Assembly (NCBI GenBank): GCA_944383685.1
Contig: CALWQM010000015.1
Span: forward strand, 57,570 to 121,569
Reading direction: 5' to 3'
Length of the DNA: 64,000 bases
Source of the DNA: an uncultured Clostridia bacterium
GTDB lineage: Bacteria; Bacillota; Clostridia; Christensenellales; UBA1242
Position numbers and translations under genes: made by a program. This document shows, piece after piece, positions 17,226 through 61,608 of the stretch. The notes under the pieces were generated by a model. It saw nothing but the letters and a program-made list of their open reading frames with translations, was not told the origin of the DNA and did no database searches. Position 1 is the stretch's first letter; each line of letters starts with the position of its first letter.

Positions 17226-18272
17226 ATGAAAACTTTATCATACTTTGAAAAAAGGGACTTAGTCAATATGGAAAAAATTGGAAGTTATCTCAGCGAACTT
17301 CCAGAGTATTGTTATGACTTTTTCACAGGTATTGAAATTACCACTTCAAGTTTGACACGTTTGAATTATGCAATGGATTTATCCATCTTTTTTGACTATA
17401 TTTCAAAGTTCATTTTAAAAAAGGACAAAAAAGAAATCACATTAAAAGATTTGGACACTCTTGAAGCGAGAGATATTGAAAGTTATTTGTCATATCTCAC
17501 CTTTTATAAAGTTGATGATAAAGCTTTTAAAAATACAGAAAATGGGAAGGCAAGAAAACTTGCAAGTGTGAGAAGTTTTTTTAAATATCTTTTCAACCAT
17601 GATTTAATAAGCAAAAATGTTGTCAGCAAAGTTCCAACTCCAAAACTTCACAACAAGGGTATTATTAGGTTGGAGGGGAATGAAATTGAGAAAATGCTTG
17701 ATGCAGTGAATGACCCAACAACATTCACACAAAGACAGAAAAATTACAACAAAAACACAAGAATACGTGATAATGCTATTGTCACACTTTTTCTTGGAAC
17801 GGGCATAAGAGTTAGCGAGCTTGTTGGACTTAATGTGGAAGATTTTGATTTTTCACAAAATGCCTTTAAAGTGACAAGAAAAGGTGGAAATCAAACAATA
17901 CTTTACTATCCAAATGAAGTTAAGTACGCAGTTGAAGAATGGCTTACAATTCGCAAAACACTTCCAATAAATGAAGATGAGCACGCATTATTCCTTTCTT
18001 TGCAAAACAGGCGCATTTGCACAAGGGCGGTTGAAAATCTTGTGAAAAAGTTTGCAAGGGAAAGCACGCCACTGAAAAATATTTCACCTCACAAACTTCG
18101 TTCAACCTTTGGCACAAATTTGTATAGGGAAACAAATGACATCTATATTGTTGCTGATGTTTTGGGGCATAAGGATGTTAACACAACCAAAAAACACTAT
18201 GCGGCAATAAGTGAAGATATGCGTAAAGGTGTTGCCAAAAAGGTGAAAATTGGCAACAGCAATTTTGATTGA
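17226..18272 (+). CDS. Tyrosine site-specific recombinase, Xer family (XerS-like architecture)
   Basis: 348 aa. Catalytic-region motifs are GIRVSELVGL, VTRKGGN, HKLRSTFGTNLY and LGHKDVNTTKKHY (R..H-R-H..Y). The N-terminal half (LPEYCYDFF...SSLTRLNYAMDLSIFFDYI) resembles streptococcal XerS from memory. Confidence 0.75.
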   Translation: MKTLSYFEKRDLVNMEKIGSYLSELPEYCYDFFTGIEITTSSLTRLNYAMDLSIFFDYISKFILKKDKKEITLKDLDTLEARDIESYLSYLTFYKVDDKAFKNTENGKARKLASVRSFFKYLFNHDLISKNVVSKVPTPKLHNKGIIRLEGNEIEKMLDAVNDPTTFTQRQKNYNKNTRIRDNAIVTLFLGTGIRVSELVGLNVEDFDFSQNAFKVTRKGGNQTILYYPNEVKYAVEEWLTIRKTLPINEDEHALFLSLQNRRICTRAVENLVKKFARESTPLKNISPHKLRSTFGTNLYRETNDIYIVADVLGHKDVNTTKKHYAAISEDMRKGVAKKVKIGNSNFD

Positions 18273-27120: not shown

Positions 27121-28311
27121 TTGAAGTCTGTAAACTTAGATTTAAAATTAAACAAAAGACTTATTAAAATTGTTGGCGGTGGACTTACTGGGATTGAAAC
27201 TGCATATATTTGTGCAAAAAACGGATACAGGGTTCACATCTTTAACAAGCCTCAAAATGAACTCACATATTTTGACAAAGAAGAACCTTTTGCAAATATT
27301 TTGCAAGAGGAACTTTTTAATTTTTCAAGCCCTACATATTTAACAAGCCAAAGGATGGGCGAAAATATATTGAAACTTGATAAAAATTTTATTGGCCTTA
27401 TGCGTGAAAAACTTAAAGAATTTCCAAATGTTTCATATATTGAAAGCGAAATTGACGAATTAAATCCAAGAGAAATAACTTTGCTTGCAACAGGAAATAA
27501 CACCACAAACAAACTTTTAGATGATTTAACAAAATATATTGGCGAAAGAAAAATTCAGTATTATAGCCCTGGCGAAATTGCCTTTAAAAACATTAAAGAA
27601 GAAAATTTGTTTCATGATAAAGATAATAACTATCATTTAAATTTAACAGAAAGCGAATATGCCATATTAAAAAACAAGATGTGTAAATTTTTAAATGATT
27701 ATGAAGTTAACAATCTTTTGGGTCAACAAATAAGCGGGGAAAGTCTTGCAAGAAATGAAGCATTAAGAACAGCAATATTTAGACCGATATATAATGAAAA
27801 TTGCAAAGCTTATGCCTCGCTTAAATTGCGAAAACATGAAGATATTTATTATTTAACTGAATTTTTCACAGCCCTTTCAAATGAGGAACAAAAGGAAATT
27901 TTCAGTGGTATATCTGCTCTTGACGGTGCAGAATTTGTAAACTTTGGAAAAATATATAAAAGGACTTATCTTTCAAGTGCAATGTGCGTAAACAACTTTT
28001 TACAATTTAAAAATGAAGAAAACTTTTTTGTCTGTGGCGGACTTTTAGGGGTGGAAGGTGTTATGGAAAGCCTGCTCACCGCAAATTACGTGGCTTATAA
28101 CCTTATGAACATGGCAGAGGGAAAGCCTTTGCAAGAAATTACCAATTTTTCATGCACAAAACTTCTAATAGATAAATTATTACAAAAAAATGTGTTAAAT
28201 CATAGGCTTTTAAGTTTTGACTATGATATAATAAATGATGAGAATGGCAAAAATATAGATACTTCTGCCGTTCTTAAATTTAAAGAAAAATTTTATGGAA
28301 AGTATTTTTAA
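27121..28311 (+). CDS. Divergent TrmFO/Gid-like flavoprotein (probable loss of catalytic cysteines)
   Basis: TTG start follows a GAGGTG SD. VGGGLTGIETA dinucleotide-binding motif and FFVCGGLLGVEGVMES (compare FFAGQ.TGVEGYVES). Position after topA matches trmFO; see findings for the missing Cys motifs. Confidence 0.55.
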   Translation: MKSVNLDLKLNKRLIKIVGGGLTGIETAYICAKNGYRVHIFNKPQNELTYFDKEEPFANILQEELFNFSSPTYLTSQRMGENILKLDKNFIGLMREKLKEFPNVSYIESEIDELNPREITLLATGNNTTNKLLDDLTKYIGERKIQYYSPGEIAFKNIKEENLFHDKDNNYHLNLTESEYAILKNKMCKFLNDYEVNNLLGQQISGESLARNEALRTAIFRPIYNENCKAYASLKLRKHEDIYYLTEFFTALSNEEQKEIFSGISALDGAEFVNFGKIYKRTYLSSAMCVNNFLQFKNEENFFVCGGLLGVEGVMESLLTANYVAYNLMNMAEGKPLQEITNFSCTKLLIDKLLQKNVLNHRLLSFDYDIINDENGKNIDTSAVLKFKEKFYGKYF

Positions 28312-28381
28312 GGATAAAGTGCTTTAAACAAAACTTTTTCAAAAATAAAAATAATTTCAATTTATAAAAGTGAGGATAAGA

Positions 28382-29686
28382 ATGAACTATACACCAAAAC
28401 AAATTGTCAGCGAACTTGATAAATATATTGTGGGACAAGCAAAGGCAAAAAGGGCGGTTGCTGTTGCATTAAGAAATCGTTATCGCCGTTCTCATTTGCC
28501 AGAAGAAATAAGAGATGAAATAACACCAAAAAACATCATCATGAGTGGGCCAACAGGTGTTGGTAAAACAGAGATTGCAAGACGTCTTGCTAAACTTGTG
28601 GGCGCACCTTTTGTTAAAGTTGAAGCGACCAAATACACCGAAGTTGGATATGTTGGCCGTGATGTTGAAAGCATGGTAAGAGATTTGGTTGAAGTTGCTG
28701 TTAGAATGGTTAAGGATAAAAAGAAAAAAGATGTTGAAGATAAGGTTATGCCAATTGTTGAACAAAAACTTATTGATGCACTTTTCCAAAATAGACGTGT
28801 CACAACTTTGGAAGTTAAAAGAGAAGATTTGGAAAATGAACTTCACAGCAATAAATTTGAAGATGAAATTATTGAAGTTTCCGTGCTTGACAGCCCAAAA
28901 CCAATTATGGCATTTGGAAGTGGTGAAATCAATTTGGGCTCTATGTTCGACAGCCTTCAACCACCAAAGCACAAAAAGAAGAAGATGAGTGTGCGTCATG
29001 CCAGAGACCTCTTACTTCAAGAAGAAACAGAAAAAATCATTGATATGGATAATGTCAATGAAGAAGCCATTTCACTTGCAGAAGAACAAGGTATTATTTT
29101 CATTGATGAAATCGATAAAATTATTGGAAAAAGCCAAGCAACAAGCAGTGCTGACGTTTCAAGAGAGGGGGTTCAAAGAGATATTCTTCCAATTGTTGAA
29201 GGAAGCACTGTGCCAACCAAATATGGCAATGTTAAAACAGATTTCATTCTTTTCATCGCAGCAGGGGCTTTCCATTTGGCTAAAATGGAAGATATGATTC
29301 CAGAACTTCAAGGTCGTTTTCCAATTAGAGTCAGCCTTGAAAGTTTAACTCAAAAAGACTTCAAGCAAATATTAACAGCACCAAAAAATGCGGTAACCTT
29401 GCAATATGCCAACCTTTTGAAGGTTGATAATATTGACCTAAAATTCACTGATGATGCACTTGACGAAATTGCCACAATTGCTGCAAATGAAAACGAAATT
29501 GAAGATTTGGGAGCAAGACGTCTTCACACAATTATGGAATTGCTTTTGGAAGATATTTCTTTCAATGCAACTGGGGAACATCCAATGACAACAGTTGAGA
29601 TTGACAGAACTTATGTTCAAAAAGCTTATAAAGATAAAAGTAAGCGTGCTACCGAAAAAATTAAAATGGGCTTTAGGGCTTCTTAA
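28382..29686 (+). CDS. hslU: HslU (ClpY) AAA+ ATPase, without an adjacent hslV
   Basis: ATG at 28382 follows a [57 protein letters not shown] and [10 protein letters not shown] motifs. Confidence 0.85.
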
Positions 29687-32079: not shown

Positions 32080-32502
32080 ATGTATAATAGATTTATTATG
32101 GAAAGATTTCAAAATCCAAAAAATGCTGGGGGAATGCATGGAGCAAATGCAATTGGTGAAGTTAAAAACGATGGTTGCACAGATATAACAAGATTATATC
32201 TTAAAATTGATGACAATAATATGATTGAAAATGCAAGATTTAAAACCTTTGGCTGTATTACATCAATTGTATCTGCTGATGTGACATGTGACTTAGTTAA
32301 AGGAAAATCTATTGATGATATTTTGAAAATCACAAATTTAGATATTTTGAAGATTATGGGAGAAATTCCAGAAAATAAAATCAAATGTTCTATTATGGCA
32401 GAAGAATCAATTCGTGCTGCAATTGAAGACTTTTATAAACGCAGAGAAAAAGAAGCTAAAAAAGCGCTTAAAGCATCAAAATATAATGTTGAAGAAGAAT
32501 AA
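32080..32502 (+). CDS. nifU: Fe-S cluster assembly scaffold (NifU N-terminal/IscU type)
   Basis: 140 aa with three conserved Cys contexts: GCTD, FGCITS and KCSIMAEESI. Confidence 0.85.
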   Translation: MYNRFIMERFQNPKNAGGMHGANAIGEVKNDGCTDITRLYLKIDDNNMIENARFKTFGCITSIVSADVTCDLVKGKSIDDILKITNLDILKIMGEIPENKIKCSIMAEESIRAAIEDFYKRREKEAKKALKASKYNVEEE

Positions 32503-32556
32503 TAAAAAAAGTTATTTTTTGCCATAAAAATAATTTGATAAAATATTAAATAATTA

Positions 32557-32592
32557 AAAAAGCACATAAACCAATACTATGTGCTTTTTTAT
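32557..32592 (+). terminator. Intrinsic terminator after nifU
   Basis: AAAAGCACATA / TATGTGCTTTT stem, 9-nt loop, T-run. Confidence 0.7.
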
Positions 32593-32963
32593 ATTTCAAA
32601 TTTTTTGGGGTGGTAGTTTACTTAAAAATTTTCATACATAAAATTATTAATTATGTAATTTATACTGGCTGGTGGTATGGTTTAATTTTATATAATAAAT
32701 TTTGTTCTAAAATGCGTTCACATACACGGAATAATTAAACTTTTAAAATTTTCCTTGAATTTAACATTATTATACAAAGATGAAAATTTCATAGTAGTAT
32801 GCATAAATATACATAAATTTAGACTCAAATATTTTTTAAATTTAGTTAAATCTTGTTTTAAACTTACAGAAAGAATAAATAAAATGTTTATAAAAATTAT
32901 GTCAATCACATTAATAAAAAAGTTAGAAGAAAACATCAATAATATTTAATTATTATGAGCTAA

Positions 32964-33125
32964 GGTATTATGCGCATAATACCACAATATTTTGTTTAAA
33001 ATTATGTGATAATACACCATATTTTGAATATCTATTCGCAAAACCTGTCTTTTGCGAATAGATTGTAAACCACTTTTAATCATAATCACCCAATTTTTTA
33101 CATAAATAAGCCCACATTTTTTATT
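32964..33125. repeat. Repeat array flanking the candidate dif
   Basis: Perfect 20-bp palindrome GGTATTATGCGCATAATACC (32964..32983). Four same-orientation ~20-bp units, consensus roughly CATAATACCACAATATTTT: 32972..32993, 33006..33025, 33079..33099, 33100..33122. Confidence 0.5.
33030..33063. other. Candidate chromosome dimer resolution site (dif-like 14-6-14 perfect palindrome)
   Basis: ATCTATTCGCAAAA CCTGTC TTTTGCGAATAGAT. It is 530 and 330 nt from the nearest gene ends, has no flanking U-tract, and sits in the convergent strand-switch gap. Confidence 0.5.
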
Positions 33126-33377
33126 TAGTTTTAGAGCAAATTTAACCAAAAATCACATGACTTTTGAAGAATTTTTTCTTAATTTACCCTATAAAAATTT
33201 CGTATAAAAGCAGCAATTTTTATTTAAAATTTATTGCATAAAATTTACAAAATATAAATAATTATAAATTTATATTTGATCGCCCACTAAATTTGATTGT
33301 AAAATGACATGACATCTAGCCCACCCTGCACCCCATTTTTTAAAAAGGAGGTATTTATCCTAGAATTTAAATAAAAG

Positions 33378-33405
33378 AAAGATAAGTCTTTACTTATCTT
33401 TTTTT
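33378..33405. terminator. Bidirectional terminator at the IMPase gene stop
   Basis: AAAGATAAGT / ACTTATCTTT stem with T-runs on both strands. The stop codon lies in the loop. Confidence 0.55.
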
Positions 33406-40244: not shown

Positions 40245-41258
40245 TTAATTTTTCTTGTTTTGCGATGGCACTTCAAGACCTAAATGTTTATATGCATTTT
40301 CAAGAACAACACGCCCTCTTGGAGTTCTTGCAATGAAGCCAAGTTGCAGTAAATATGGCTCATAAACATCTTCAATTGTGCCGGAATCTTCACCAATGGT
40401 GGCAGATAATGTGTCAAGTCCAACAGGCCCACCACCAAATTTATATATAATGCTTTCCAAAATCTTTCGATCAATAAAATCAAGTCCAAGTTCGTCAATT
40501 TCCATTTTGGCAAGTGCTTGGTCAGCAATTTCCTTGGTTATTTCACCACTTCCCAAAACTTCGGCATAGTCACGCACACGTTTAAGAAGTCTATTTGCAA
40601 TTCTTGGGGTCCCCCTTGAACGCCTTGCAATGTCCAAGCTTGCACTACTGTCAATGTTAATATTCAAAATATTGGCAGAACGTTCAATAATAACCTGCAA
40701 ATCTTTATCACTATAAAGTTCCAAACGGCAGATAACTCCAAATCTGTCACGAAGTGGGCTTGTAAGCATACCTGCCTTTGTGGTTGCACCAATAAGTGTG
40801 AAAGGTTGAATTTTTAAGCGCATATTTTTTGCGGATGGACCTTTTCCAACAATGAAATCAAGTGCAAAATCTTCCATGGCAGGATACAAAATTTCTTCAA
40901 CAGTTTTGTTAAGCCTGTGAATTTCATCAATAAAAAGCACGTCATTTTTGTTTAAGTTTGTAAGAATTGCCGCAAGGTCTGCTGCATGTTCGATTGCAGG
41001 CCCAGATGTGATTTTAATTTGTGAGCCAAGCTCCTTTGCAATGATATGTGATAAAGTGGTTTTCCCAAGTCCAGGTGGTCCATACAAAAGCACATGGTCA
41101 AGAGCATCTTTTCTTGATTTTGCAGCTTGAATATAAACTCTTAAACTTTCCTTAACCTTATCCTGCCCAACATATTGGTCAAGACTTGTTGGACGAAGCG
41201 AAGTTTCAATTTCAGCATCTGTCCAATTTTTTGTGCTTGTTATAAATCTATCTTCCAT
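40245..41258 (-). CDS. ruvB: Holliday junction branch migration ATPase RuvB
   Basis: [21 protein letters not shown] and FIDEIHRL motifs. Confidence 0.95.
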
Positions 41259-41270
41259 ACATACCTCTCA

Positions 41271-41328
41271 CTATATGTTGTGTAGTATTCATGCATACTA
41301 CAATATATATTGCGTCATAACACAATAA
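41271..41328. repeat. Palindromic intergenic repeat family, copy D
   Basis: CTATATGTTGTGTAGTATTCATGCATACTACAATATATATTGCGTCATAACACAATAA fills the ruvA-ruvB spacer. Confidence 0.5.
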
Positions 41329-41329
41329 T

Positions 41330-41935
41330 TTATCTTCCAAGTTGTCTCAAAACTTTAAGAATAATTTCCTCTGCTGTTGCTCCATCTCCGGCATTTGAAC
41401 GAGCAAGACGATAAGCATCATTTTTGTTAACACCCAAGTTAATTAATGTGTCAACTGCATCATTCAAAGCATTTTCATTAACAAAACTATCCAAATTATC
41501 TTTATAGTTAAACAAATTATTATCCATACCAGTTGCTGAGATTTTGTCTTTAAGCTCCAAGCAAATTCTTTCAGCAGTTTTTCTTCCAAGTCCTTTAACC
41601 TTGGATAAAAGGGTTACATCTTCTCTTGTGATTGCAATCACCAAATCGGAAAGTTTCATTCCTGAAAGCACACTTATTGCCATTTTAGGCCCAACTCCGG
41701 AAACAGTTATAAGCTTCATGAAAATTTGTTTTTCTTCTGCTGTTGCAAAGCCATAAAGAGCAACTCCATCTTCCTTAACATGCAAATATGTTAAAACTTT
41801 TGTGGTTTCATTCACATTTGGCAAAGCAACCAAAGTGTTATTAGAAATCAAAAGTTCATATCCCACCCCATTAACATCCATAACAAGATAGTTTTCGTAT
41901 TTTTCTTCAATAGTTCCAACTAAAAATGCAATCAT
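41330..41935 (-). CDS. ruvA: Holliday junction DNA helicase RuvA
   Basis: MIAFLVGTI...VNGVGYEL and tandem HhH (VSGVGPKMA, KGLGRKTAERI). Confidence 0.9.
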   Translation of the reverse strand: MIAFLVGTIEEKYENYLVMDVNGVGYELLISNNTLVALPNVNETTKVLTYLHVKEDGVALYGFATAEEKQIFMKLITVSGVGPKMAISVLSGMKLSDLVIAITREDVTLLSKVKGLGRKTAERICLELKDKISATGMDNNLFNYKDNLDSFVNENALNDAVDTLINLGVNKNDAYRLARSNAGDGATAEEIILKVLRQLGR

Positions 41936-41942
41936 AATTACC

Positions 41943-42431
41943 TCACATCATATTAAAGTTCAATCTAGGATTAATTTGACTATGGCAAATTGCAACAGCC
42001 AAAGCATCAGCTGCATCATCTGGTTTTGGAATGCTTTTAAGTCCAAGAACATTCTTAACCATAAACTGCATCTGCCTTTTTTCAGCATGTCCATTGCCTG
42101 TTAAAGCCTGTTTGATTTGAATTGGTGTATATTCAAAAGTCCTACCGCAATATTTTTGACTTGCAAGCACAATCACACCTCTTGCCTGAGCCACTTGAAT
42201 AACAGTTTTTTGATTCTTAAAATAGAAAAGTTCTTCAATGGCAACCTCATCTGGCTTATAGGTTTCAAAAATAACTCTTAAACTTTCGTCAATATGTTGC
42301 AGTCTAATTGGTAATGGGTCCTCTTTGGGAGTTTCAATAACTCCATAATCAACAACTTCATTATCTCTTTCTGTGTCAATAATACCATATCCCACAATGG
42401 CATAACCCGGGTCAATTCCTAAAATTCTCAT
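41943..42431 (-). CDS. ruvC: Crossover junction endodeoxyribonuclease RuvC
   Basis: MRILGIDPGYAIVGYGI..., EELFYFKN and DAADALAVAICH motifs. Confidence 0.9.
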   Translation of the reverse strand: MRILGIDPGYAIVGYGIIDTERDNEVVDYGVIETPKEDPLPIRLQHIDESLRVIFETYKPDEVAIEELFYFKNQKTVIQVAQARGVIVLASQKYCGRTFEYTPIQIKQALTGNGHAEKRQMQFMVKNVLGLKSIPKPDDAADALAVAICHSQINPRLNFNMM

Positions 42432-42640: not shown

Positions 42641-45600
42641 TTACCAGATAAATTCATCTTGACAACTTGAACATTTTAATTCACCAGCATGGCAATGTTC
42701 ACCCAAACTTATGTCATTGTTACCTAGAAATTTGTCAGCATTTGTATAACATTTTGTTATAAATGATGTGTCATTTGAATTTATATTTCCAGCAAAACCG
42801 CCAACACTTAGGTCATCATCACTTGTAGAACTATCACTAGCATTATTAATTATACTAATATTACCTTTTGAATAACAAATTGTAATATTATATGAAGAAT
42901 CAGTATTTTCAATAACACCAGCAAATCCACCAAAATTCATCGGTGTTTCTGTATAAAGATTAGAAATTTCTCCCCCATTTCTTAATAGCAAAGCTTCGTT
43001 AACATTATCATCTTTTACATAAGTTCTTAAACTATCCGCTTCTATCACAAAAATTTGATTATTACTTTTATTATTAGTGTTAACAACAACACTGCAATTA
43101 TAATTTCCAACTCTTGTGAAATTAGAATTATTTGAATATCCAACAACTGCCCCAACATTAGCAAAACCTTCAACATTACCACTCATGATTGTTAAATTTT
43201 TTATGGTTGCATTTTCTGTGTAACCAAAAAGTCCAATGTTGTTTAAATTTGATTCGCTGATATTCAAATTATAAATTGAATAATATTGACCATCATAATA
43301 TCCCTTAAAAGGACTTTGCTCCGTTCCAATAGGAAGCATATTGTTTTGAAGTGTTGTTTTTTCGTTAACTAATGGGTCATCTGGGAAAACAATATCACAG
43401 GTTTGTTTAAATCTCTCTCCTTCAAAAGTGTTACCCATGATTGTTGTTTGATAAAGCATCCAATACAAATCGCTATAAGAATCTATTATATAGGTGTTTC
43501 CTTGTTTTTCAGGATTAATGATATCAAGATTTTCATCACTTAATGACTCTATTTCCATAGAAAGCATATAGTAAACATCAATATTAATTACATTTGACTC
43601 GGCATTATTGGTGATTACTTGAAAGTCAAAAGTTCCAGATTTAGATAGCTGTTCACCATTACAATAAATGCCATAATATGTCATAAATCTGTTAATACCA
43701 TCATGGTTAATACCATCATACACAATTTGATCTAAATAATTATAAAATTTTTGTATATCTAGATTGATTTTTGAATATGCTTTAACATTTTCAAACGTAT
43801 ACATTTTATAAAGATCTTTTGAAACTGCATTTTTTGAATTATATGTAGGTTCATTGCCAAGAATAGAAACATTATAAGAATTTTCTGAACCTTTAACAGT
43901 GTCAATATCTGCAATTCCCATCAAGGTAAATTTATTTTTAGCACTATCATAAGAATCAGCAAAGTAAAGGTTAAAGTTAATATCATAACTTTGTAAACTA
44001 TAATATGAATAGAAAAGCATTGAATTGTAATTGGTTGCATTACTTTGCATTACTTCGTCATTGCCGTTTACAAGGGCATCAGTATAGTAAGAATAAAGTT
44101 GATATTTATCAAAGTAACTTCCTGCATAACCGCTTGTTGAGAATGTATTTGCAAAATCTACAAAAGAATTTTCATCGTCTGCGGACTTTTCAGTTTCATT
44201 TGCGAAATAACCAAGATTTGGAGTTTTTGTTACACCACTTAAAACTCCTTTTTTTATTATTTCTTCGCCTGAATCAAGAGTTTCTTTCCAAGTACTAAAA
44301 TATAAATCTTTTCCCTGCCCGTCTTTTGGTTCTGCATTTGCTGGATTATACCCACTTCCTGCAAATGGATTGGTTTTGTCAAAATTAAATTCATAGAAGA
44401 ATGTAAGTTTAAATTCAAAACCTTCAACAGAACTTGTGTCAAGTTTAATATATTTATTATCTTTGGATTTATCTTGGTCAGTAATTTGCCCTGCCTTAAT
44501 AGTTCCATCATCTTCAATTGCAAGATAAAGGTCGTCTCTCTTTGTTGAATCATTAGAATTTATTGGAATTATTGTGTAAGTGGTAATATCGCCAACACTA
44601 TTTGAAATAGAATTAAAATTATGCTCGCCATTTTTATCTGTTTCATTCCAAATATCTAAATTTCCGCCACTGCTTCCAATATGATAAACACCTTCTGCAT
44701 CTTCATAAACATCTGCAAAATAGTAATAATAAGACCTATATTCTGCCCCTCTATTTAATGTAGGATTTACACTAAATTCTTCAAAATGGATATTAATAGC
44801 TAAACCATCATTTACATTTAAATTTCCATTTTTTGTTCCTAATTCTTCAAATTGGTATAAGTCCAAGGTCAAGTAAATCATACCTTCACTTGGGTTTGGT
44901 TGCTTATCACTCTCAAAAGTGATAAAACCATTTTGAGTTGGAATAAAATCATCACTTGAAGATATTTTAAAGTTATCAAATGTAAAACCAGCTGTTCCAC
45001 CCCAAGCGAAAGATTTGTTATAATCATTCGTTTCATTTGACCCCTTTCTATCAAGAGTTACATTGCCAACATAATGAGAATAATATCCATCAAAGAAATT
45101 ACTCCCACTATTTTTTAATTGTGCTCCAATTTTGAGCTGAGCACTTTGATTTCCATTTGCACTGAATGAAGTAGTATTCGCCGTGTTACCACTTGTTCCG
45201 TATTCTATATTCCTAAAAACAATATCTTCGCCATGACTTTGATAAGCCCGTCCACTATAACCATAATTTACAGTAATAGTCCCCAATCCTGGATTGCCCT
45301 CAGTTCCTTCTGTAAAATTATTATTTTCGTCGCTTTCTAACTTATAGTTAATTTTAATACCACTATACTGATAGCGAACAAAAACTGCGGTAAGTGTTGT
45401 GCCAGATGTTATCTTATTTGTATTAAATGTGTATGTAATTACTCCACCATTATTTTTAAGATCCTCTGCTTTAATTGACGATGTGCTTACTTCATAATTG
45501 AGGTTATCAATAGATACAATGGATGCATCTGCAGAACTGAAAAATTTATCACCAATAAATAAACCAAAAACTTCATAATTTTCATTTGGTTTTAACGAAA

Positions 45601-47662
45601 CAGAAATATTGTATTTTCCAGCAAGCCCACTAATTGTGATACTTTCTTTATTGTTGTTTTCATTGTCTATAAATTCGTTGACATTAGAAGCTTCCGCAGA
45701 AACTGCACTGATATAACCACCTTCTGTGCCAATCTCAGTTTCAAAAGAAGAAGGTTCAACATAAAATTGGTTTGCATATTTAACATTAACAGTGTAACTT
45801 ATTGCATTTCTATCAAAAACCGCAACAATGTTTTGAATACTAGAATTATAGGTTCCACCATCCTCAGTATATAAATAAATATTATCACTTAGAGGATCGC
45901 CACTATAATTACCTCTACTATTATATCTATACCATCCTTTAAATGAATATGAACTATTAACCGTCCTTGAACACAAACTCATATTAGTATTTGTTGTTTT
46001 AAAGAAATATAAGGTTACAGAACTGTTGGTGGTAACAGAACTTGCTTTTGCTCCATTTCTAAAATATACTGACCCAGCTTCTCCACTCATTGAACTTGTT
46101 GTCCCTGAATCGGCAGTTTGGTCATAAACATAAGCATTTCCGCCATCTTTATCTATATTCTTGGTTTGAATGCCAACATTAATATCCTCAAGCCAATAGG
46201 AAAGAACTAATTTCCCTTCAATAACATCTTCATCTGTCCCAAAATCAACATAGGACCATGTCCTACTTTTATCAGTTGAGCTATAATCAAAGTTACTTAA
46301 ATATCTAGTATCAATATCTATATTACTTAATGACGATATTTTGCTATTATTATTTACTGTTCCAGCCTTAGTTGTTCCATAAAGGTTGTTTCCAGTGTAA
46401 TAACAATTATTGATATTTCCTCTATTCCAGCCAACTATTGAACCAACTCTTTCAGTGCCACCACCTTTAATTTTGCCAACATTAATACAATAAGTAACAT
46501 TTTGGTCACCATTATCGGATCCACCATAACCAGACTGTCCAACAATACCACCAGTAACAGTGTCACCAGTAGACCTTCCCCCAACATCACCATAGTTAAT
46601 GCAATGGTCAACATCCGCCCCCTCTTCAAGAGAGCCTACAATACCACCAGTAAATTTAACTGAGCTGCTTATTTTTCCATAATTAATACAATTCGATATT
46701 TGACTATCTCGTTTGGCAAAACCAACAAATCCACCAACTTTTTCGGAAACATTTTCTCCTGAACGAGTTATATTGCCCAAATTCATGCAGTTATCTATAT
46801 CAACATTTCCACCATCTGTAAAGCCAACAAAACCACCCATCCATGTTTCCCAGCCAAAATTAGAAGAATCACATTTGATGTTAATTTTATTAACACAATT
46901 TTCAATTTTAACAGTGCCCCCAGTCACCCTGGAAACAAATGCTCCATAAACACCTTCATAAGATGATGAAATATTGCCGTCTAACATCAAATTTTTTATA
47001 GTGCAACCATCAGAATGCCCAATTAAACCAATAAATCTTCCAGATTGAAGTCCTAAAAATCCTGTTCCATAATGATAACGTCCTTCATTATCTCTATTTA
47101 CATCAATTGTCAACCCAGAAATAATATGACCTCTACCATCAATTATTCCTTTAAAATTTCTTATAGGCATCCAATAATGAGCAGAAAGGTCAATATTTTC
47201 TTGAATATAGATTGTCCTACCCTCATATGTATTACCCTTTTCAATTGAATTATAAGCAATGCCTGCTAAGTCTTGGGCATTATAAATATAATATCCAACA
47301 TTTGCATCATAATTTCCACTATCTGTCCAATAGCCTGATGCTTGACTTGAAACTTCATCGTTATCGTCATCAGTTTCACCATTACCTACGTCACCATCTG
47401 GCGAGCTTGGACTTTGAGTATTATCCTCATTTTTTTCATCATCACTTGGTGAAGAAGTTGAACCATTTTCACCATTATCAACATTTTCGCTGTCGTCTAA
47501 ACTTTCATTGTCACTGTCAATGGTATCTTCAACAGAGGTTTGAGGTAAAAGAGCAGCATAATTATATATATTAATTGAACACAAACAAAGTATTGCTGTG
47601 AATAAAACACATGCAAATGACATTAAGAATTTTTGATTAAACTTCTTATTTTTCATTTTCAT
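42641..47662 (-). CDS. Giant secreted/surface protein (1673 aa) with GLUG-like repeat modules
   Basis: Signal peptide, acidic D/E/S/N-rich spacer, and a GG[FI]VG-repeat module preceded by Y.NAQDLAGIA...ENIDLS..W.PI..F.G..DG.GH.ISGL. This architecture matches the 8228 gene. It continues with a long N/S/T/Y-rich region holding F.GW-type repeats and a second GLUG-like module near the C-terminus. Confidence 0.8.
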   Translation of the reverse strand: MKMKNKKFNQKFLMSFACVLFTAILCLCSINIYNYAALLPQTSVEDTIDSDNESLDDSENVDNGENGSTSSPSDDEKNEDNTQSPSSPDGDVGNGETDDDNDEVSSQASGYWTDSGNYDANVGYYIYNAQDLAGIAYNSIEKGNTYEGRTIYIQENIDLSAHYWMPIRNFKGIIDGRGHIISGLTIDVNRDNEGRYHYGTGFLGLQSGRFIGLIGHSDGCTIKNLMLDGNISSSYEGVYGAFVSRVTGGTVKIENCVNKINIKCDSSNFGWETWMGGFVGFTDGGNVDIDNCMNLGNITRSGENVSEKVGGFVGFAKRDSQISNCINYGKISSSVKFTGGIVGSLEEGADVDHCINYGDVGGRSTGDTVTGGIVGQSGYGGSDNGDQNVTYCINVGKIKGGGTERVGSIVGWNRGNINNCYYTGNNLYGTTKAGTVNNNSKISSLSNIDIDTRYLSNFDYSSTDKSRTWSYVDFGTDEDVIEGKLVLSYWLEDINVGIQTKNIDKDGGNAYVYDQTADSGTTSSMSGEAGSVYFRNGAKASSVTTNSSVTLYFFKTTNTNMSLCSRTVNSSYSFKGWYRYNSRGNYSGDPLSDNIYLYTEDGGTYNSSIQNIVAVFDRNAISYTVNVKYANQFYVEPSSFETEIGTEGGYISAVSAEASNVNEFIDNENNNKESITISGLAGKYNISVSLKPNENYEVFGLFIGDKFFSSADASIVSIDNLNYEVSTSSIKAEDLKNNGGVITYTFNTNKITSGTTLTAVFVRYQYSGIKINYKLESDENNNFTEGTEGNPGLGTITVNYGYSGRAYQSHGEDIVFRNIEYGTSGNTANTTSFSANGNQSAQLKIGAQLKNSGSNFFDGYYSHYVGNVTLDRKGSNETNDYNKSFAWGGTAGFTFDNFKISSSDDFIPTQNGFITFESDKQPNPSEGMIYLTLDLYQFEELGTKNGNLNVNDGLAINIHFEEFSVNPTLNRGAEYRSYYYYFADVYEDAEGVYHIGSSGGNLDIWNETDKNGEHNFNSISNSVGDITTYTIIPINSNDSTKRDDLYLAIEDDGTIKAGQITDQDKSKDNKYIKLDTSSVEGFEFKLTFFYEFNFDKTNPFAGSGYNPANAEPKDGQGKDLYFSTWKETLDSGEEIIKKGVLSGVTKTPNLGYFANETEKSADDENSFVDFANTFSTSGYAGSYFDKYQLYSYYTDALVNGNDEVMQSNATNYNSMLFYSYYSLQSYDINFNLYFADSYDSAKNKFTLMGIADIDTVKGSENSYNVSILGNEPTYNSKNAVSKDLYKMYTFENVKAYSKINLDIQKFYNYLDQIVYDGINHDGINRFMTYYGIYCNGEQLSKSGTFDFQVITNNAESNVINIDVYYMLSMEIESLSDENLDIINPEKQGNTYIIDSYSDLYWMLYQTTIMGNTFEGERFKQTCDIVFPDDPLVNEKTTLQNNMLPIGTEQSPFKGYYDGQYYSIYNLNISESNLNNIGLFGYTENATIKNLTIMSGNVEGFANVGAVVGYSNNSNFTRVGNYNCSVVVNTNNKSNNQIFVIEADSLRTYVKDDNVNEALLLRNGGEISNLYTETPMNFGGFAGVIENTDSSYNITICYSKGNISIINNASDSSTSDDDLSVGGFAGNINSNDTSFITKCYTNADKFLGNNDISLGEHCHAGELKCSSCQDEFIW

Positions 47663-59115: not shown

Positions 59116-61608
59116 TTATTTGCAGTCAAACAAAGTTTTGCCTTCGCCAACATTAACAGTGAGAGGAACCTTAAAAGCTTTAACATTTTCCATGCAACTT
59201 TTAACAATTTTCTCCACCTTTTCAAGTTCTTCCTTTTTAACATCAATAACAAGTTCGTCATGCACCTGCAAAATGATATGACTCTCAAGCCCTTTTAACT
59301 CCCGAAAAGTGGAAATCATGGCAAGTTTAATAATGTCCGACGCTGTGCCTTGAAGTGGCATATTCATTGCCACACGTTCGCCAAATTTTCTTACATTATA
59401 GTTTGAAGACGAAAGTTCTGGAATCATTCTAATTCTTCCAAAAACGGTTTTTGCATAACCATTTTCCTTGGCAAACTCAATGTTTTTATCCATATACTCT
59501 TTAATTTTTGGATAACGAGTGAAATAACTGTCTATATATGCTTTTGCTTTCATTCTTGACGTTTTAATGTTTTGCGAAAGCCCATAATCACTTATGCCAT
59601 AAACAATGCCAAAATTAACCGCTTTTGCATCCCTACGCATACTTGCTGAAACCTTATCAATAGGAACATTGAAAATTTCACTTGCTGTTTTTGTGTGAAT
59701 GTCAATTCCATGCTGATAGGACTCAATCATAGAATCTTCTTCTGCCAAGTTTGCAAGAAGCCTTAACTCAATTTGGTTATAGTCCGCTGAAACAATCAAC
59801 CCATCTTCAAACTTAGAAATGAAAATCTTTCTTAAATTTTTTCCTTCTTCGTCACGAGTTGGAATGTTTTGCATGTTTGGTTCGCTACTTGAAAGCCTAC
59901 CAGTGTTGGTCAAGGTTTGGTTGAAAATTGTGTGAATAACATTGCCCTTGGTTTTGCAAATCTGCTTATAAACATTGATATATGTGCTTTTAAGTTTATA
60001 AACTTTTCTGTAATGAATAATCAAATTAACAATCTCATGGTCAAATCTAAGTTCGTCCAAAATGGCAAAGTTGGTTGACCTTTTTGCATTGTTATAAGGC
60101 ACAATTTTCAGTTTGTCAAACAAAATTGAAGCAACCTGCTTTGGCGAATTAATGTTAAACTCCTCCCCTGCAAGTGAATAGATTTGTTGTTCAAGTTCGC
60201 TTATTTCAGCGGAAATCTTTTCATCAATTTCATCAAGCCCTGTTTCGTCAATCTTAAAGCCTTTTTCTTCCATGTCAGCCAAAACTTCAACAAGCGGAAT
60301 TTCAATTTTGTTATAAACAAAATCAACACCTTTTTCAACCATCATGCTTTCATAATTCTTTTTGTCGTCAAAATAGTCTGCAATATTCTTGGAAAGTTCA
60401 TTGCTGACAGAAGTGAAACAAACATATCTTGCAATTTCAAGGTCAAAAAAGTTTCTAAGATTAATTGAAAGCCTGTGCAAAATTTTCATATCTTCTTTTG
60501 AAGATTTTGTGATTTTTAAGATATTTTCATTTTCAAAAACATCCTTTAATTTTCCTAAAACTTCGTTAAAGTCAATAAAGGAAGAAAATAAGTCAGGGTC
60601 TTTCTTTAAGAAATAAACTTTTTTATTTGAAACAGCAAATTCAAGTTCTTTTATGTTGAACGCAAACTCATTTCTTATTTCACTTTTCATTCTGTCAACA
60701 ATGTCAAGATTATCAATAAGGATTCTTTCAGCACGATTTTCTTCTTTCTTTGGTTCTTTAAAAAGTTCTTCTTTCTTAGAAAAAGAATTAAAGTTCCAAT
60801 ATTCAAAAAATTCTCTAACTTCATTATTGAATGGAAAATCATAAGTGCAGGACTCAATGTCATATTCAAACTCACAATCGGTTTTGATTGTTGCAAGTGT
60901 CTTTGAAAGATATGCCTTATCTTTGTCGTTTTCAAGTTTTTCTTTCAGCTTTCCACTTATCTCACCAATATGCTCATACACGCCATCAAGTGCGCCATAC
61001 TTTTGAAGCAAGGAAAGCGCCGTCTTTTCACCAACTCCTGCCACCCCTGGGATATTGTCGGACGAATCGCCCATAAGTGCTTTAAGTTCAATTATTCCGC
61101 TTGGAGCAAAACCATATTTTTCCTTAATGGCCTTCTCATCCATAATATCAAGTTCTGTGATACCCTTTTTTGTTAGCCAAACAGTGGTGTTGTCATCCAC
61201 AAGTTGCAGCAAATCTCTGTCCCCAGAAAGCAAAATGTTTTCGTTTTTGGAATGTTTGCTGAGTGTTCCAATAATATCGTCAGCTTCAATTCCATCTTGT
61301 TCAAAAACTTTAATACCCATTTTCAAAAGCATTTCTTTGATAAAAGGAAATTGTTTGGATAAATCAAGAGGAGTTTCCTTTCTTGTCCCCTTATAGCCCT
61401 TATATATATCAGTTCTAAAAGTGTGCCTTGAATGGTCAAAAGCAACAGCAATATAGTCTGGTTTTTGTTCCAAAATAAGTTTAATTAAAATGTTTGCAAA
61501 CCCAAAAATAGCGCCAGATGGTTGGGCTTTTATGTTAGATAAATAAGGCATTGCATAAAATGCCCTATTTGCAAGACTGTTACCGTCAACAATTAAAAAT
61601 TTTTTCAT
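59116..61608 (-). CDS. polA: DNA polymerase I
   Basis: 830 aa with a 5' nuclease domain (LIVDGNSLANRAFYA, GDSSDNIPGV) and pol motifs A (ADYNQIELR), B (RRDAKAVNFGIVYG) and C (QVHDEL). Confidence 0.95.
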   Translation of the reverse strand: MKKFLIVDGNSLANRAFYAMPYLSNIKAQPSGAIFGFANILIKLILEQKPDYIAVAFDHSRHTFRTDIYKGYKGTRKETPLDLSKQFPFIKEMLLKMGIKVFEQDGIEADDIIGTLSKHSKNENILLSGDRDLLQLVDDNTTVWLTKKGITELDIMDEKAIKEKYGFAPSGIIELKALMGDSSDNIPGVAGVGEKTALSLLQKYGALDGVYEHIGEISGKLKEKLENDKDKAYLSKTLATIKTDCEFEYDIESCTYDFPFNNEVREFFEYWNFNSFSKKEELFKEPKKEENRAERILIDNLDIVDRMKSEIRNEFAFNIKELEFAVSNKKVYFLKKDPDLFSSFIDFNEVLGKLKDVFENENILKITKSSKEDMKILHRLSINLRNFFDLEIARYVCFTSVSNELSKNIADYFDDKKNYESMMVEKGVDFVYNKIEIPLVEVLADMEEKGFKIDETGLDEIDEKISAEISELEQQIYSLAGEEFNINSPKQVASILFDKLKIVPYNNAKRSTNFAILDELRFDHEIVNLIIHYRKVYKLKSTYINVYKQICKTKGNVIHTIFNQTLTNTGRLSSSEPNMQNIPTRDEEGKNLRKIFISKFEDGLIVSADYNQIELRLLANLAEEDSMIESYQHGIDIHTKTASEIFNVPIDKVSASMRRDAKAVNFGIVYGISDYGLSQNIKTSRMKAKAYIDSYFTRYPKIKEYMDKNIEFAKENGYAKTVFGRIRMIPELSSSNYNVRKFGERVAMNMPLQGTASDIIKLAMISTFRELKGLESHIILQVHDELVIDVKKEELEKVEKIVKSCMENVKAFKVPLTVNVGEGKTLFDCK

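Follow-up and report, generated by a model that had tools for sequence, protein, structure and literature searches.

A perfect palindrome at a replication-terminus signature in Clostridia as the probable dif site of a single Xer recombinase

What is the role of a long, perfect palindrome that lies well away from any gene, in the gap between two convergent genes of a bacterial chromosome? We addressed this question for a 64-kb stretch of contig CALWQM010000015.1 from an uncultured Clostridia bacterium (hereafter the window, meaning the whole stretch of DNA that was analysed). Read directly from the sequence, the element at 33030-33063 is ATCTATTCGCAAAA-CCTGTC-TTTTGCGAATAGAT, with two arms of 14 nt each that are complementary at 14/14 positions around a 6-nt centre. 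This is exactly the 14-6-14 palindrome that a preliminary description of the window had singled out as a candidate dif site. Our analysis makes it very likely that the palindrome serves the chromosome as its dif site, within a single-recombinase Xer system that is widespread in Clostridia. A dif-type site for one Xer recombinase, encoded at 17226-18272 of the same window, is supported by conservation across genomes, GC skew, linkage between site and gene in searches from either side, covariation between the arms, and prophages integrated at the site. The parts of the site and the skew feature next to it are as follows.

33030..33043, no strand assigned: left arm, putatively recombinase-binding, ATCTA-TTCGCAAAA; the inner 9 nt are kept across genomes, and the outer 5 nt vary among genomes and covary with the right arm.
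33044..33049, + strand: asymmetric 6-bp spacer CCTGTC, which fits the family consensus S-Y-T-G-T-S.
33050..33063, no strand assigned: right arm, putatively recombinase-binding, TTTTGCGAA-TAGAT, identical to the left arm when read on the opposite strand.
32500..33000, no strand assigned: plateau of the cumulative GC skew with its maximum at 32704, coinciding with the switch of gene strand from + to −.

The palindrome occupies an 887-bp gap between the stop of a nifU-like gene (32502, + strand; the left neighbours of the gap are a nifS-nifU pair on this strand) and that of an inositol-monophosphatase-like gene (33390, − strand). The two genes are convergent, and the distances from the palindrome to their ends, 527 nt and 326 nt, respectively, bear out its earlier placement in mid-gap at the strand switch, hundreds of nucleotides from the gene ends. 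Each neighbour has a 3′ hairpin of its own: that of the nifU-like gene (32555-32591) was terminator-like in our scan, and that of the inositol-monophosphatase-like gene (~33375-33400) was read by eye from the sequence. Inspection of the palindrome revealed no T-run after it on either strand, so it is not a normal terminator, as had been suggested. The promoter and terminator scan found nothing at the palindrome, and its promoter-like matches were no commoner than in shuffled sequences. An Rfam search of the gap returned just a sub-threshold Thr-leader match over the nifU terminator, which is irrelevant here.

Folded as single-stranded DNA, the palindrome gave −12.5 kcal/mol (z = −6.1). Six loci in the window had perfect inverted repeats whose arms measured 12 nt or more, compared with ~0.13 per simulated window; the five loci other than the palindrome sit at gene ends and are terminator-like. 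Because repeats of this kind are fairly common in the window, the palindrome alone is not informative, and the weight rests on its position, its missing T-tract and, above all, its conservation. The 34-mer occurred once in the window, with no second copy at up to three mismatches, and none of 100 shuffles matched it; the single-copy status foreseen for the site thus held across the 64 kb. Two further TTCGCAAAA half-sites, at 17950-17958 (inside the recombinase gene) and 59570-59578, look like chance occurrences.

The palindrome lies ~330 bp from the cumulative G−C maximum at 32704, and the large genes of the window are all on the + strand to its left and all on the − strand to its right. Together, the skew maximum and the strand switch are the signature of a replication terminus.

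Conservation was assessed by scanning a species-representative genome collection with the inner arms, TTCGCAAAA-N6-TTTTGCGAA (18 fixed bases). The motif was found at at least 120 genome loci, nearly all from Clostridia, and the site-first counts given here rest on the at least 120 loci listed; by our own estimate, 18 fixed bases in ~600 Gb would be expected at ~10 loci by chance. Among the matches listed, all assemblies but one gave a single locus, as did the 2.56-Mb chromosome record LT700187.1. The listed carriers include three Christensenella isolates, one Butyrivibrio isolate and many metagenome-assembled genomes, the last labelled Christensenellales, Lachnospiraceae, Oscillospiraceae, Defluviitaleaceae or Halanaerobiales. 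Although the query required the inner 9+9 bases only, the outer arms xxCTA...TAGxx were repeated in most listed sites. A spacer of the form S-Y-T-G-T-S or its complement, with a ..TGT. core, was common to 49 listed sites, whose consensus was tAWCTA-TTCGCAAAA-SYTGTS-TTTTGCGAA-TAGWTa. Information in this set was high across ~34-36 bp only, remaining above background to ~5-6 nt outside the searched core on each side and dropping to ~0.1 bit beyond.

Furthermore, we aligned the intergenic regions of six species that share the nifS-nifU neighbourhood, at 66-80% DNA identity. Only two blocks were conserved, the site of 34 bp and, left of it, a short repeat, which agrees with the expectation that an alignment of related termini would show a conserved site in non-conserved flanks. 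The arrangement of two arms around a 6-8-bp centre, a feature of dif systems, is represented here as 14-6-14. Matches labelled Treponema, Bacteroidales and Dehalococcoidia came without the outer-arm extension and were taken as chance or unrelated. One Bacteroidales assembly (L087) contained several TTCGCAAAA...TTTTGCG-like hairpins with A-rich loops within 400 bp, which looks like an unrelated local repeat.

The skew shift was then evaluated in loci with at least 1 kb on each side of the site, and control positions were taken within these loci at a distance of 2.5 kb or more. This test needs no orientation of the loci because a terminus reads positive on the left and negative on the right either way. 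Among the matches listed, 80 loci were testable; GC skew was higher on the left than on the right in 70 of these (binomial p = 3e-12), and its sign changed from positive to negative in 48 of the testable loci and in the reverse direction in 4. At the control positions, a fall in skew was observed in 46/96. A location in non-coding DNA at a skew shift, another feature of dif systems, was found in the window, and the skew shift at the site recurred in its relatives. The window was also examined for KOPS/SRS-type oriented words that converge on the palindrome. Strand-biased 7- and 8-mers were numerous (e.g., GAAGAAG, 24 vs 6); these words are not separable from coding bias because all genes are co-oriented with replication.

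The two arms change together. Outer arm variants among genomes included ATCTA, AACTA, ATTTA, ATCAC, ATCTT and others, and the opposite arm changed in step. Outer position 1 was complementary in 105 of 119 listed sites, against 46.6 expected; for positions 1-6, 0/2000 shuffles reached the observed complementarity, and the signal was lost by position 8. A mirrored change within the inner arm, TTCGTAAAA / TTTTACGAA, was present in a set of loci collected through the recombinase protein (described below). Because mirrored arm change is the prediction of a homodimeric binder, these sequence patterns suggest that one protein probably binds both arms. A recombination site needs an asymmetric spacer to have direction, and CCTGTC is presumed to be the strand-exchange region that gives this site its direction.

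The candidate for such a protein is encoded on the left side of the window:

17226..18272, + strand: XerS-like Xer-type tyrosine recombinase gene, 348 aa, the sole tyrosine recombinase gene in the window.

Its best family model was XerS (NF003462), aligned over the full length at 183.5 bits against a cut-off of 267, and a Christensenella orthologue scored 183.2 bits with the same model. The models XerC, XerA and XerD ranked next; the four models gave E = 1e-43 to 1e-54, each below its family cut-off. The gene had been called XerS-like, and this holds in that XerS is the best model; at 183 bits, below 267, the protein is not XerS proper. Among solved structures, the best match was XerD (69 bits), followed by XerA and a weaker XerH match (5jjv, 47 bits). 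The catalytic residues R195, K219, H289, R292, H315 and Y325 are present, and R, K, H, R, H and Y were invariant in 31 orthologues. The predicted protein thus resembles the cognate Xer-group recombinase with a full catalytic set that characterizes dif systems. In public annotation, its homologues are called only 'tyrosine-type recombinase/integrase'.

No second tyrosine recombinase gene was detected in the 64-kb window. At 27121-29686, topA is followed by a divergent TrmFO-like gene (131 bits, cut-off 262) and then directly by hslU, with neither hslV nor xerC/codV between the TrmFO-like gene and hslU. The gene order in Bacillus differs, with hslV and xerC/codV lying between trmFO and hslU. At the TrmFO-like/hslU locus of the window, hslU appears to be without its protease partner. 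The remark that xerC is missing at 28312..28381 is correct as a description; it concerns one syntenic spot and carries little weight for the rest of the genome.

Site and recombinase gene were linked whichever of the two served as the query. A tyrosine recombinase gene was present in the same 8-kb block in 60 of the at least 120 listed loci, and the site lay on the 5′ side of the gene in 60/60, mostly at a distance of a few bp to ~600 bp and at most 5.2 kb. Among these 60 listed genes, 37 are orthologues of the window recombinase (45-60% identity), and the other 23 are distant Xer-like genes (26-36% identity) whose best model was XerC at 208-238 bits (cut-off 335). For the protein-first test, a metagenome scan with an alignment of 12 orthologues yielded 80 loci chosen independently of the site, and the 67 loci with at least 1 kb upstream of the gene formed the denominator. 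The motif, allowing 3 mismatches, was found in 36/67 loci, as one copy each and upstream of the gene in 36/36. None was found downstream of the gene in these loci, although equal downstream sequence was available. A site adjoining the gene is a feature of the XerS/difSL system; in relatives of the window the two are a few bp to ~5 kb apart, with the site upstream in 37/37 genome and 36/36 metagenome loci, and in the window they are 15.8 kb apart. Because the window site is conserved and located at the skew switch at that distance, its function is not only regulation of the recombinase gene.

The 23 loci with the more distant genes (L005, L010, L017, L032, L060, L102, L103, L112, L113 and others) form a second site class, with the same inner arms and AT-rich spacers such as TTAATA, TTTTTA and TAAAAA. 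The recombinases of this class are XerC-like, shorter (308-344 aa) and 26-36% identical to that of the window. In about half of the 23 loci, the site is just 16-50 bp upstream of the gene, and several loci show a skew switch. This class may represent a dif/Xer system of other lineages of Clostridia, sister to the present one. Four related second-class loci carry another palindrome, TTCGCAAAA-C-TTTTGCAAA, with a 1-nt spacer (L005:1477, L032:4093, L069:5186 and L105:1193). It lies 435-480 bp from the main site, near the recombinase start, and is slightly degenerate in L005 and L105.

A look-up of the exact NifU protein of the window returned ten contigs with the same gene order, of which eight carried the identical 34-mer and one ended before the site. 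The tenth (L144) belongs to a strain of the species of the window, whose NifU protein and gene order it shares; its sequence is identical to that of the window along the whole left arm, across CCTGTC and into the right arm as far as its first TTT. Foreign DNA begins at the fourth base of the right arm, giving a hybrid right arm, TTTGTAAAATCGTT, in place of TTTTGCGAATAGAT. Besides a holin-like protein, it encodes one that matches Phage_ORF5 (67 bits) and one that matches the scaffold protein of Chlamydia phage Chp2 (48 bits), and on these predicted proteins the element is a gokushovirus-type microvirus. The contig ends within the element, so that one junction is visible. Complete microvirus prophages of ~5 kb were found in L094, a 5.3-kb contig of a Clostridia assembly, and in L135.

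L144:10952-12342: part of the gokushovirus-like prophage, the counterpart of window position 33030 onward.
L094:44-5260: complete prophage with a consensus site on one side and a variant site (7-nt gap, mismatched arm) on the other.
L135:3572-8548: complete prophage with a consensus site on one side and a variant site (10-bp spacer) on the other.

Both complete prophages encode an F-type capsid, a scaffold protein, ORF5 and a replication initiator, and no integrase gene was found in either of them. Because their capsids are just 45-55% identical over two aligned segments, L094 and L135 represent independent phages. IMEX-type elements are integrase-less elements located at the site and flanked by the host site and a look-alike; this configuration was seen at both ends of L094 and L135 and at the one junction of L144. 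In enterobacteria, integrase-less gokushovirus prophages have been shown experimentally to integrate at dif via the host XerC/XerD, and the integrated phage lies between the dif of the bacterium and a copy carried by the phage, which varies more (PMC7062461). The similar pattern observed here is the strongest indication that the site is a working Xer target. The three elements together suggest that temperate gokushoviruses of Clostridia use the site. Microvirus-like prophages in Clostridia have already been noted, in a paper whose main text does not contain the terms 'dif-like' or 'XerC' (PMC9753089).

Viral contigs contained neither a match to the phage-side junction sequence of L144 nor, in a capsid-based scan, any relatives, and a search for a second L144-type junction via the gene to the right of the site gave uninterrupted loci only. 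When viral contigs were scanned with the motif, 15 matches were obtained; a microvirus prophage was recognised at the site in just one of them, L135, and others resembled host DNA. Three IMG/VR contigs of 37-96 kb (L122, L130 and L134) carry a site of the consensus type, aacta-TTCGCAAAA-GGATAG-TTTTGCGAA-tagtg, at a sharp skew switch from +0.2 to −0.2. In L122, the open reading frames near the site include one for a dUTPase and one for a thermolysin-like peptidase that begins with a Uma2 nuclease-like domain. These contigs may be host terminus DNA classed as viral, or prophages adjoining dif.

Some genome loci contain half-sites in addition to the main site, for example at L084:792, L118:722 and L056:3487. 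L084 has, 2.4 kb from the main site, a further left arm whose spacer is the same (GCTGTC) and whose right-hand partner is degenerate. The interval between the two contains a gene for a DUF2726 protein and small open reading frames, and may be the scar of another integrated element.

We then compared the site and its recombinase with known systems. The literature consulted lists four single-recombinase Xer systems, namely XerS, XerH, archaeal XerA and XerL. In the literature searched, we found no description of the present motif as dif or of a single-recombinase Xer system in Clostridia, which is not proof of novelty. Several features are shared with XerS/difSL: a single recombinase of ~350 aa with XerS as its top, full-length family model, a site at the terminus, and in most relatives a site directly upstream of the gene, as a module (PMC5357621). 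The inner arm TTCGCAAAA also resembles the difSL left arm TTTCCGAAAA, and in both sites an A-tract and a T-tract face the centre. The systems differ in that the window protein scores below the XerS cut-off (183 vs 267 bits), in that gene and site are 15.8 kb apart in the window, and in their hosts, Clostridia versus Lactobacillales (streptococci and lactococci). Whereas the window site has identical 14-bp arms and a 6-bp spacer, difSL is 31 bp long with unequal arms, TTTCCGAAAA / TTTTCTTGAAA, and an enlarged centre, for which 11 bp are reported (PMC5357621). The sequence of the window most similar to difSL departs from it at 9 positions and is located away from the palindrome.

XerH/difH of Helicobacter and Campylobacter likewise combines a single long recombinase (XerH, 354-362 aa) with a terminus site that is often near the gene. 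The difH site is near-palindromic, A4-N6-T4, with the consensus TGAAAAC---A-TTTTCA (PMC2731167), and its arms, which are imperfect, differ in the affinity with which they are bound (PMC5357621). The window site has just the A4/T4 core in common with difH, its own arm reading GCAAAA rather than TGAAAA. The XerH match (5jjv, 47 bits) is weaker than that to XerD (69 bits) and indicates a distant relation. Neither XerH orthology nor the site TT--T--TGAAAAC---A-TTTTCAAA was found, and the window contained no sequence within 9 mismatches of H. pylori difH. The resemblance to difSL and difH put forward in the preliminary description is thus real and limited: the A4-spacer-T4 core is present in all, TTCGCAAAA is like TTTCCGAAAA, and difH has TGAAAA.

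The XerL/dif system of Legionellales shares with the window a single recombinase and a dif with long uninterrupted inverted repeats; it too was recognised via an integrated mobile element, and its gene can lie far from the site (PMC9765430). Its host phylum is unrelated, and the comparison is one of published features. With XerCD/dif (E. coli; CodV/RipX in B. subtilis), the window shares a single-copy terminus site, two arms, a 6-bp spacer and an Xer-group recombinase, as well as exploitation by integrase-less phages including gokushoviruses (PMC7062461). The difference is that XerCD uses two paralogous recombinases and two different 11-bp arms. Neither the dif of E. coli nor that of B. subtilis had a counterpart in the window at up to 8 mismatches, and in the search for canonical dif, difSL and difH the best matches, at 9 mismatches, were away from the skew switch; a canonical XerCD-type dif near the skew extremum, which would have spoken against the proposal, is therefore absent from the 64 kb searched. 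In architecture, loxP/Cre and FRT/Flp are also similar, with perfectly symmetric 13-14-bp arms, a short asymmetric spacer that sets direction, and one recombinase acting on both arms. They differ in being phage or plasmid systems with an 8-bp spacer and no terminus link, related to Xer by superfamily only.

A pathway for the window site can be proposed along the lines of the established tyrosine-recombinase mechanism. Two molecules of the 348-aa recombinase would bind the two identical 14-bp arms, and two directly repeated sites on a chromosome dimer would synapse. An FtsK/SpoIIIE-type septal translocase would bring the two terminus copies together and presumably exert control. Strands would be cut and exchanged via a Holliday junction, with predicted cleavage positions at the edges of the 6-bp spacer. 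Because CCTGTC is asymmetric, the sites would align one way only, and this single alignment would therefore resolve the dimer into two monomers. No second recombinase would be expected to take part.

Several observations weigh against a dif site of this kind. The invariance of the inner 18 bases in the genome-scan set is by construction, because the scan fixed those bases, and is thus a product of the query. Extra exact half-sites TTCGCAAAA occurred in 39/136 loci, ~3 times our composition-based estimate, and are unexplained. In 31/67 protein-first loci, no motif was found within 6 kb, and in the window, unlike in most relatives, the site lies 15.8 kb from the gene and downstream of it. The protein-first set also contains real variants, with unequal arms, TTCGCAAAA / TTTAACGAA, in some lineages; therefore, perfect symmetry is common and not universal. 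Covariation that keeps the arms complementary would equally fit a conserved hairpin. The window represents 64 kb of a genome, and XerC/XerD, a second dif or more copies of the site may lie elsewhere. Finally, dimer resolution, as opposed to other terminus-linked recombination, is suggested by analogy with known systems.

Some of these points bear on other explanations. It is unlikely, in our judgement, that the site and the recombinase form a site-specific recombination module whose role is not dimer resolution: they could be a domesticated integrase and the attachment site it acts on, could offer mobile elements a place to dock, or could assist decatenation. Such a module would account for site and gene travelling together, for phages inserting at the site, for the extra half-sites and hybrid sites nearby in some loci, and for public annotation of the recombinase as just 'integrase'. 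However, inversion or excision would need two sites, and there is about one per assembly among the matches listed. The skew switch at the site in 70/80 listed loci, the retention of the window site at the terminus despite a gene 15.8 kb away, and flanking genes that are ordinary housekeeping genes and differ between taxa also argue against it, and integrase-less microviruses use dif specifically (PMC7062461). A dif site served by two recombinases in the XerC/XerD style, with the second encoded outside the window, seems quite improbable. XerCD-type systems occur in most Firmicutes analysed so far (PMC3025954), our view is limited to 64 kb of the genome, and arms are unequal in some relatives, as in the TTCGCAAAA / TTTAACGAA lineages. 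Against this, the XerCD-type dif has distinct XerC and XerD arms (PMC2731167), whereas the window arms are identical at 14/14 positions, outer-arm changes are mirrored across genomes, and relatives have a single recombinase gene beside the site.

We give little credence to an operator for a dimeric transcription factor, or a regulatory site of the recombinase gene itself, that takes no part in recombination. A perfect palindrome, its position upstream of the recombinase gene in relatives, and the 16-50 bp before the start codon in the second class would suit this explanation. In the window, however, the site stands between convergent gene ends with nothing downstream to regulate and is perfectly conserved 15.8 kb from the recombinase gene; moreover, the site tracks the GC-skew switch, and phage genomes are joined at the spacer. 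It is similarly implausible that the palindrome acts through a hairpin structure, as an unusual terminator, RNA element or cruciform, or that it is a fork-arrest (Ter) site. The stem is predicted to be stable, covariation keeps the arms complementary and the location is the terminus, yet the T-run is absent, both neighbouring genes have their own 3′ hairpins, and no Rfam family matched at the palindrome. The inner arms are conserved in sequence and not just in pairing across recombinases with identity down to 45%, a symmetric site cannot give polar fork arrest, and neither the linkage to the recombinase gene nor the phage junctions would be explained. That the palindrome is the end of a repeated element (a repetitive extragenic palindrome, a miniature inverted-repeat transposable element or an insertion-sequence hairpin) or a chance palindrome is scarcely credible. 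The six long perfect inverted-repeat loci of the window give it some footing, but the site has one copy in the window and about one per assembly among the matches listed, no flanking repeat or transposase accompanies it, and it is conserved at at least 120 genome loci where the flanks are not. We therefore retain the dif site of a single Xer recombinase as the preferred explanation.

The window contains some further features near the site:

32974-32986 and 33008-33019, + strand: two direct copies of a GCATAATAC(C)AC-like sequence to the left of the palindrome.

These copies, 27 and 60 nt left of the palindrome, are conserved only among the nearer relatives of the window (L051, L062, L072, L091 and L098). 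They may be accessory binding sites or a promoter remnant, and their membership in the system is uncertain. The Holliday-junction genes ruvB, ruvA and ruvC lie at 40245-42431 (− strand), 7-9 kb from the site on the right replichore, and are adjoined by tgt and queA. The names of the ruv, tgt and queA genes come from the collinear loci L136-L139, with whose called genes the open reading frames of the window were matched. At 42641-47662 (− strand), an open reading frame of 1673 aa had no Pfam match at E <= 1e-5.

Taking the results together, we lean towards a broader picture, in which the window is typical of an undescribed single-recombinase Xer/dif system that extends through much of Clostridia, with a second, XerC-like clade using the same arms and AT-rich spacers. 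In this picture, the loxP-like symmetric 14-bp arms co-evolve with the enzyme, and temperate gokushoviruses that infect Gram-positive gut bacteria integrate at the site, which would be the first such pairing of a microvirus with a host site in Firmicutes. If true, this would be a fifth single-recombinase Xer system, spread through abundant gut and rumen Clostridia, and it would fill a gap in what is understood of chromosome segregation in these bacteria. The site would provide a simple terminus marker for thousands of fragmented metagenome-assembled genomes. A compact recombinase and a 34-bp site with natural, co-varying specificities would also offer a genetic tool for organisms that are hard to engineer. 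Finally, gokushoviruses, whose hosts are largely unknown, would be tied to named Clostridia through their integration site.

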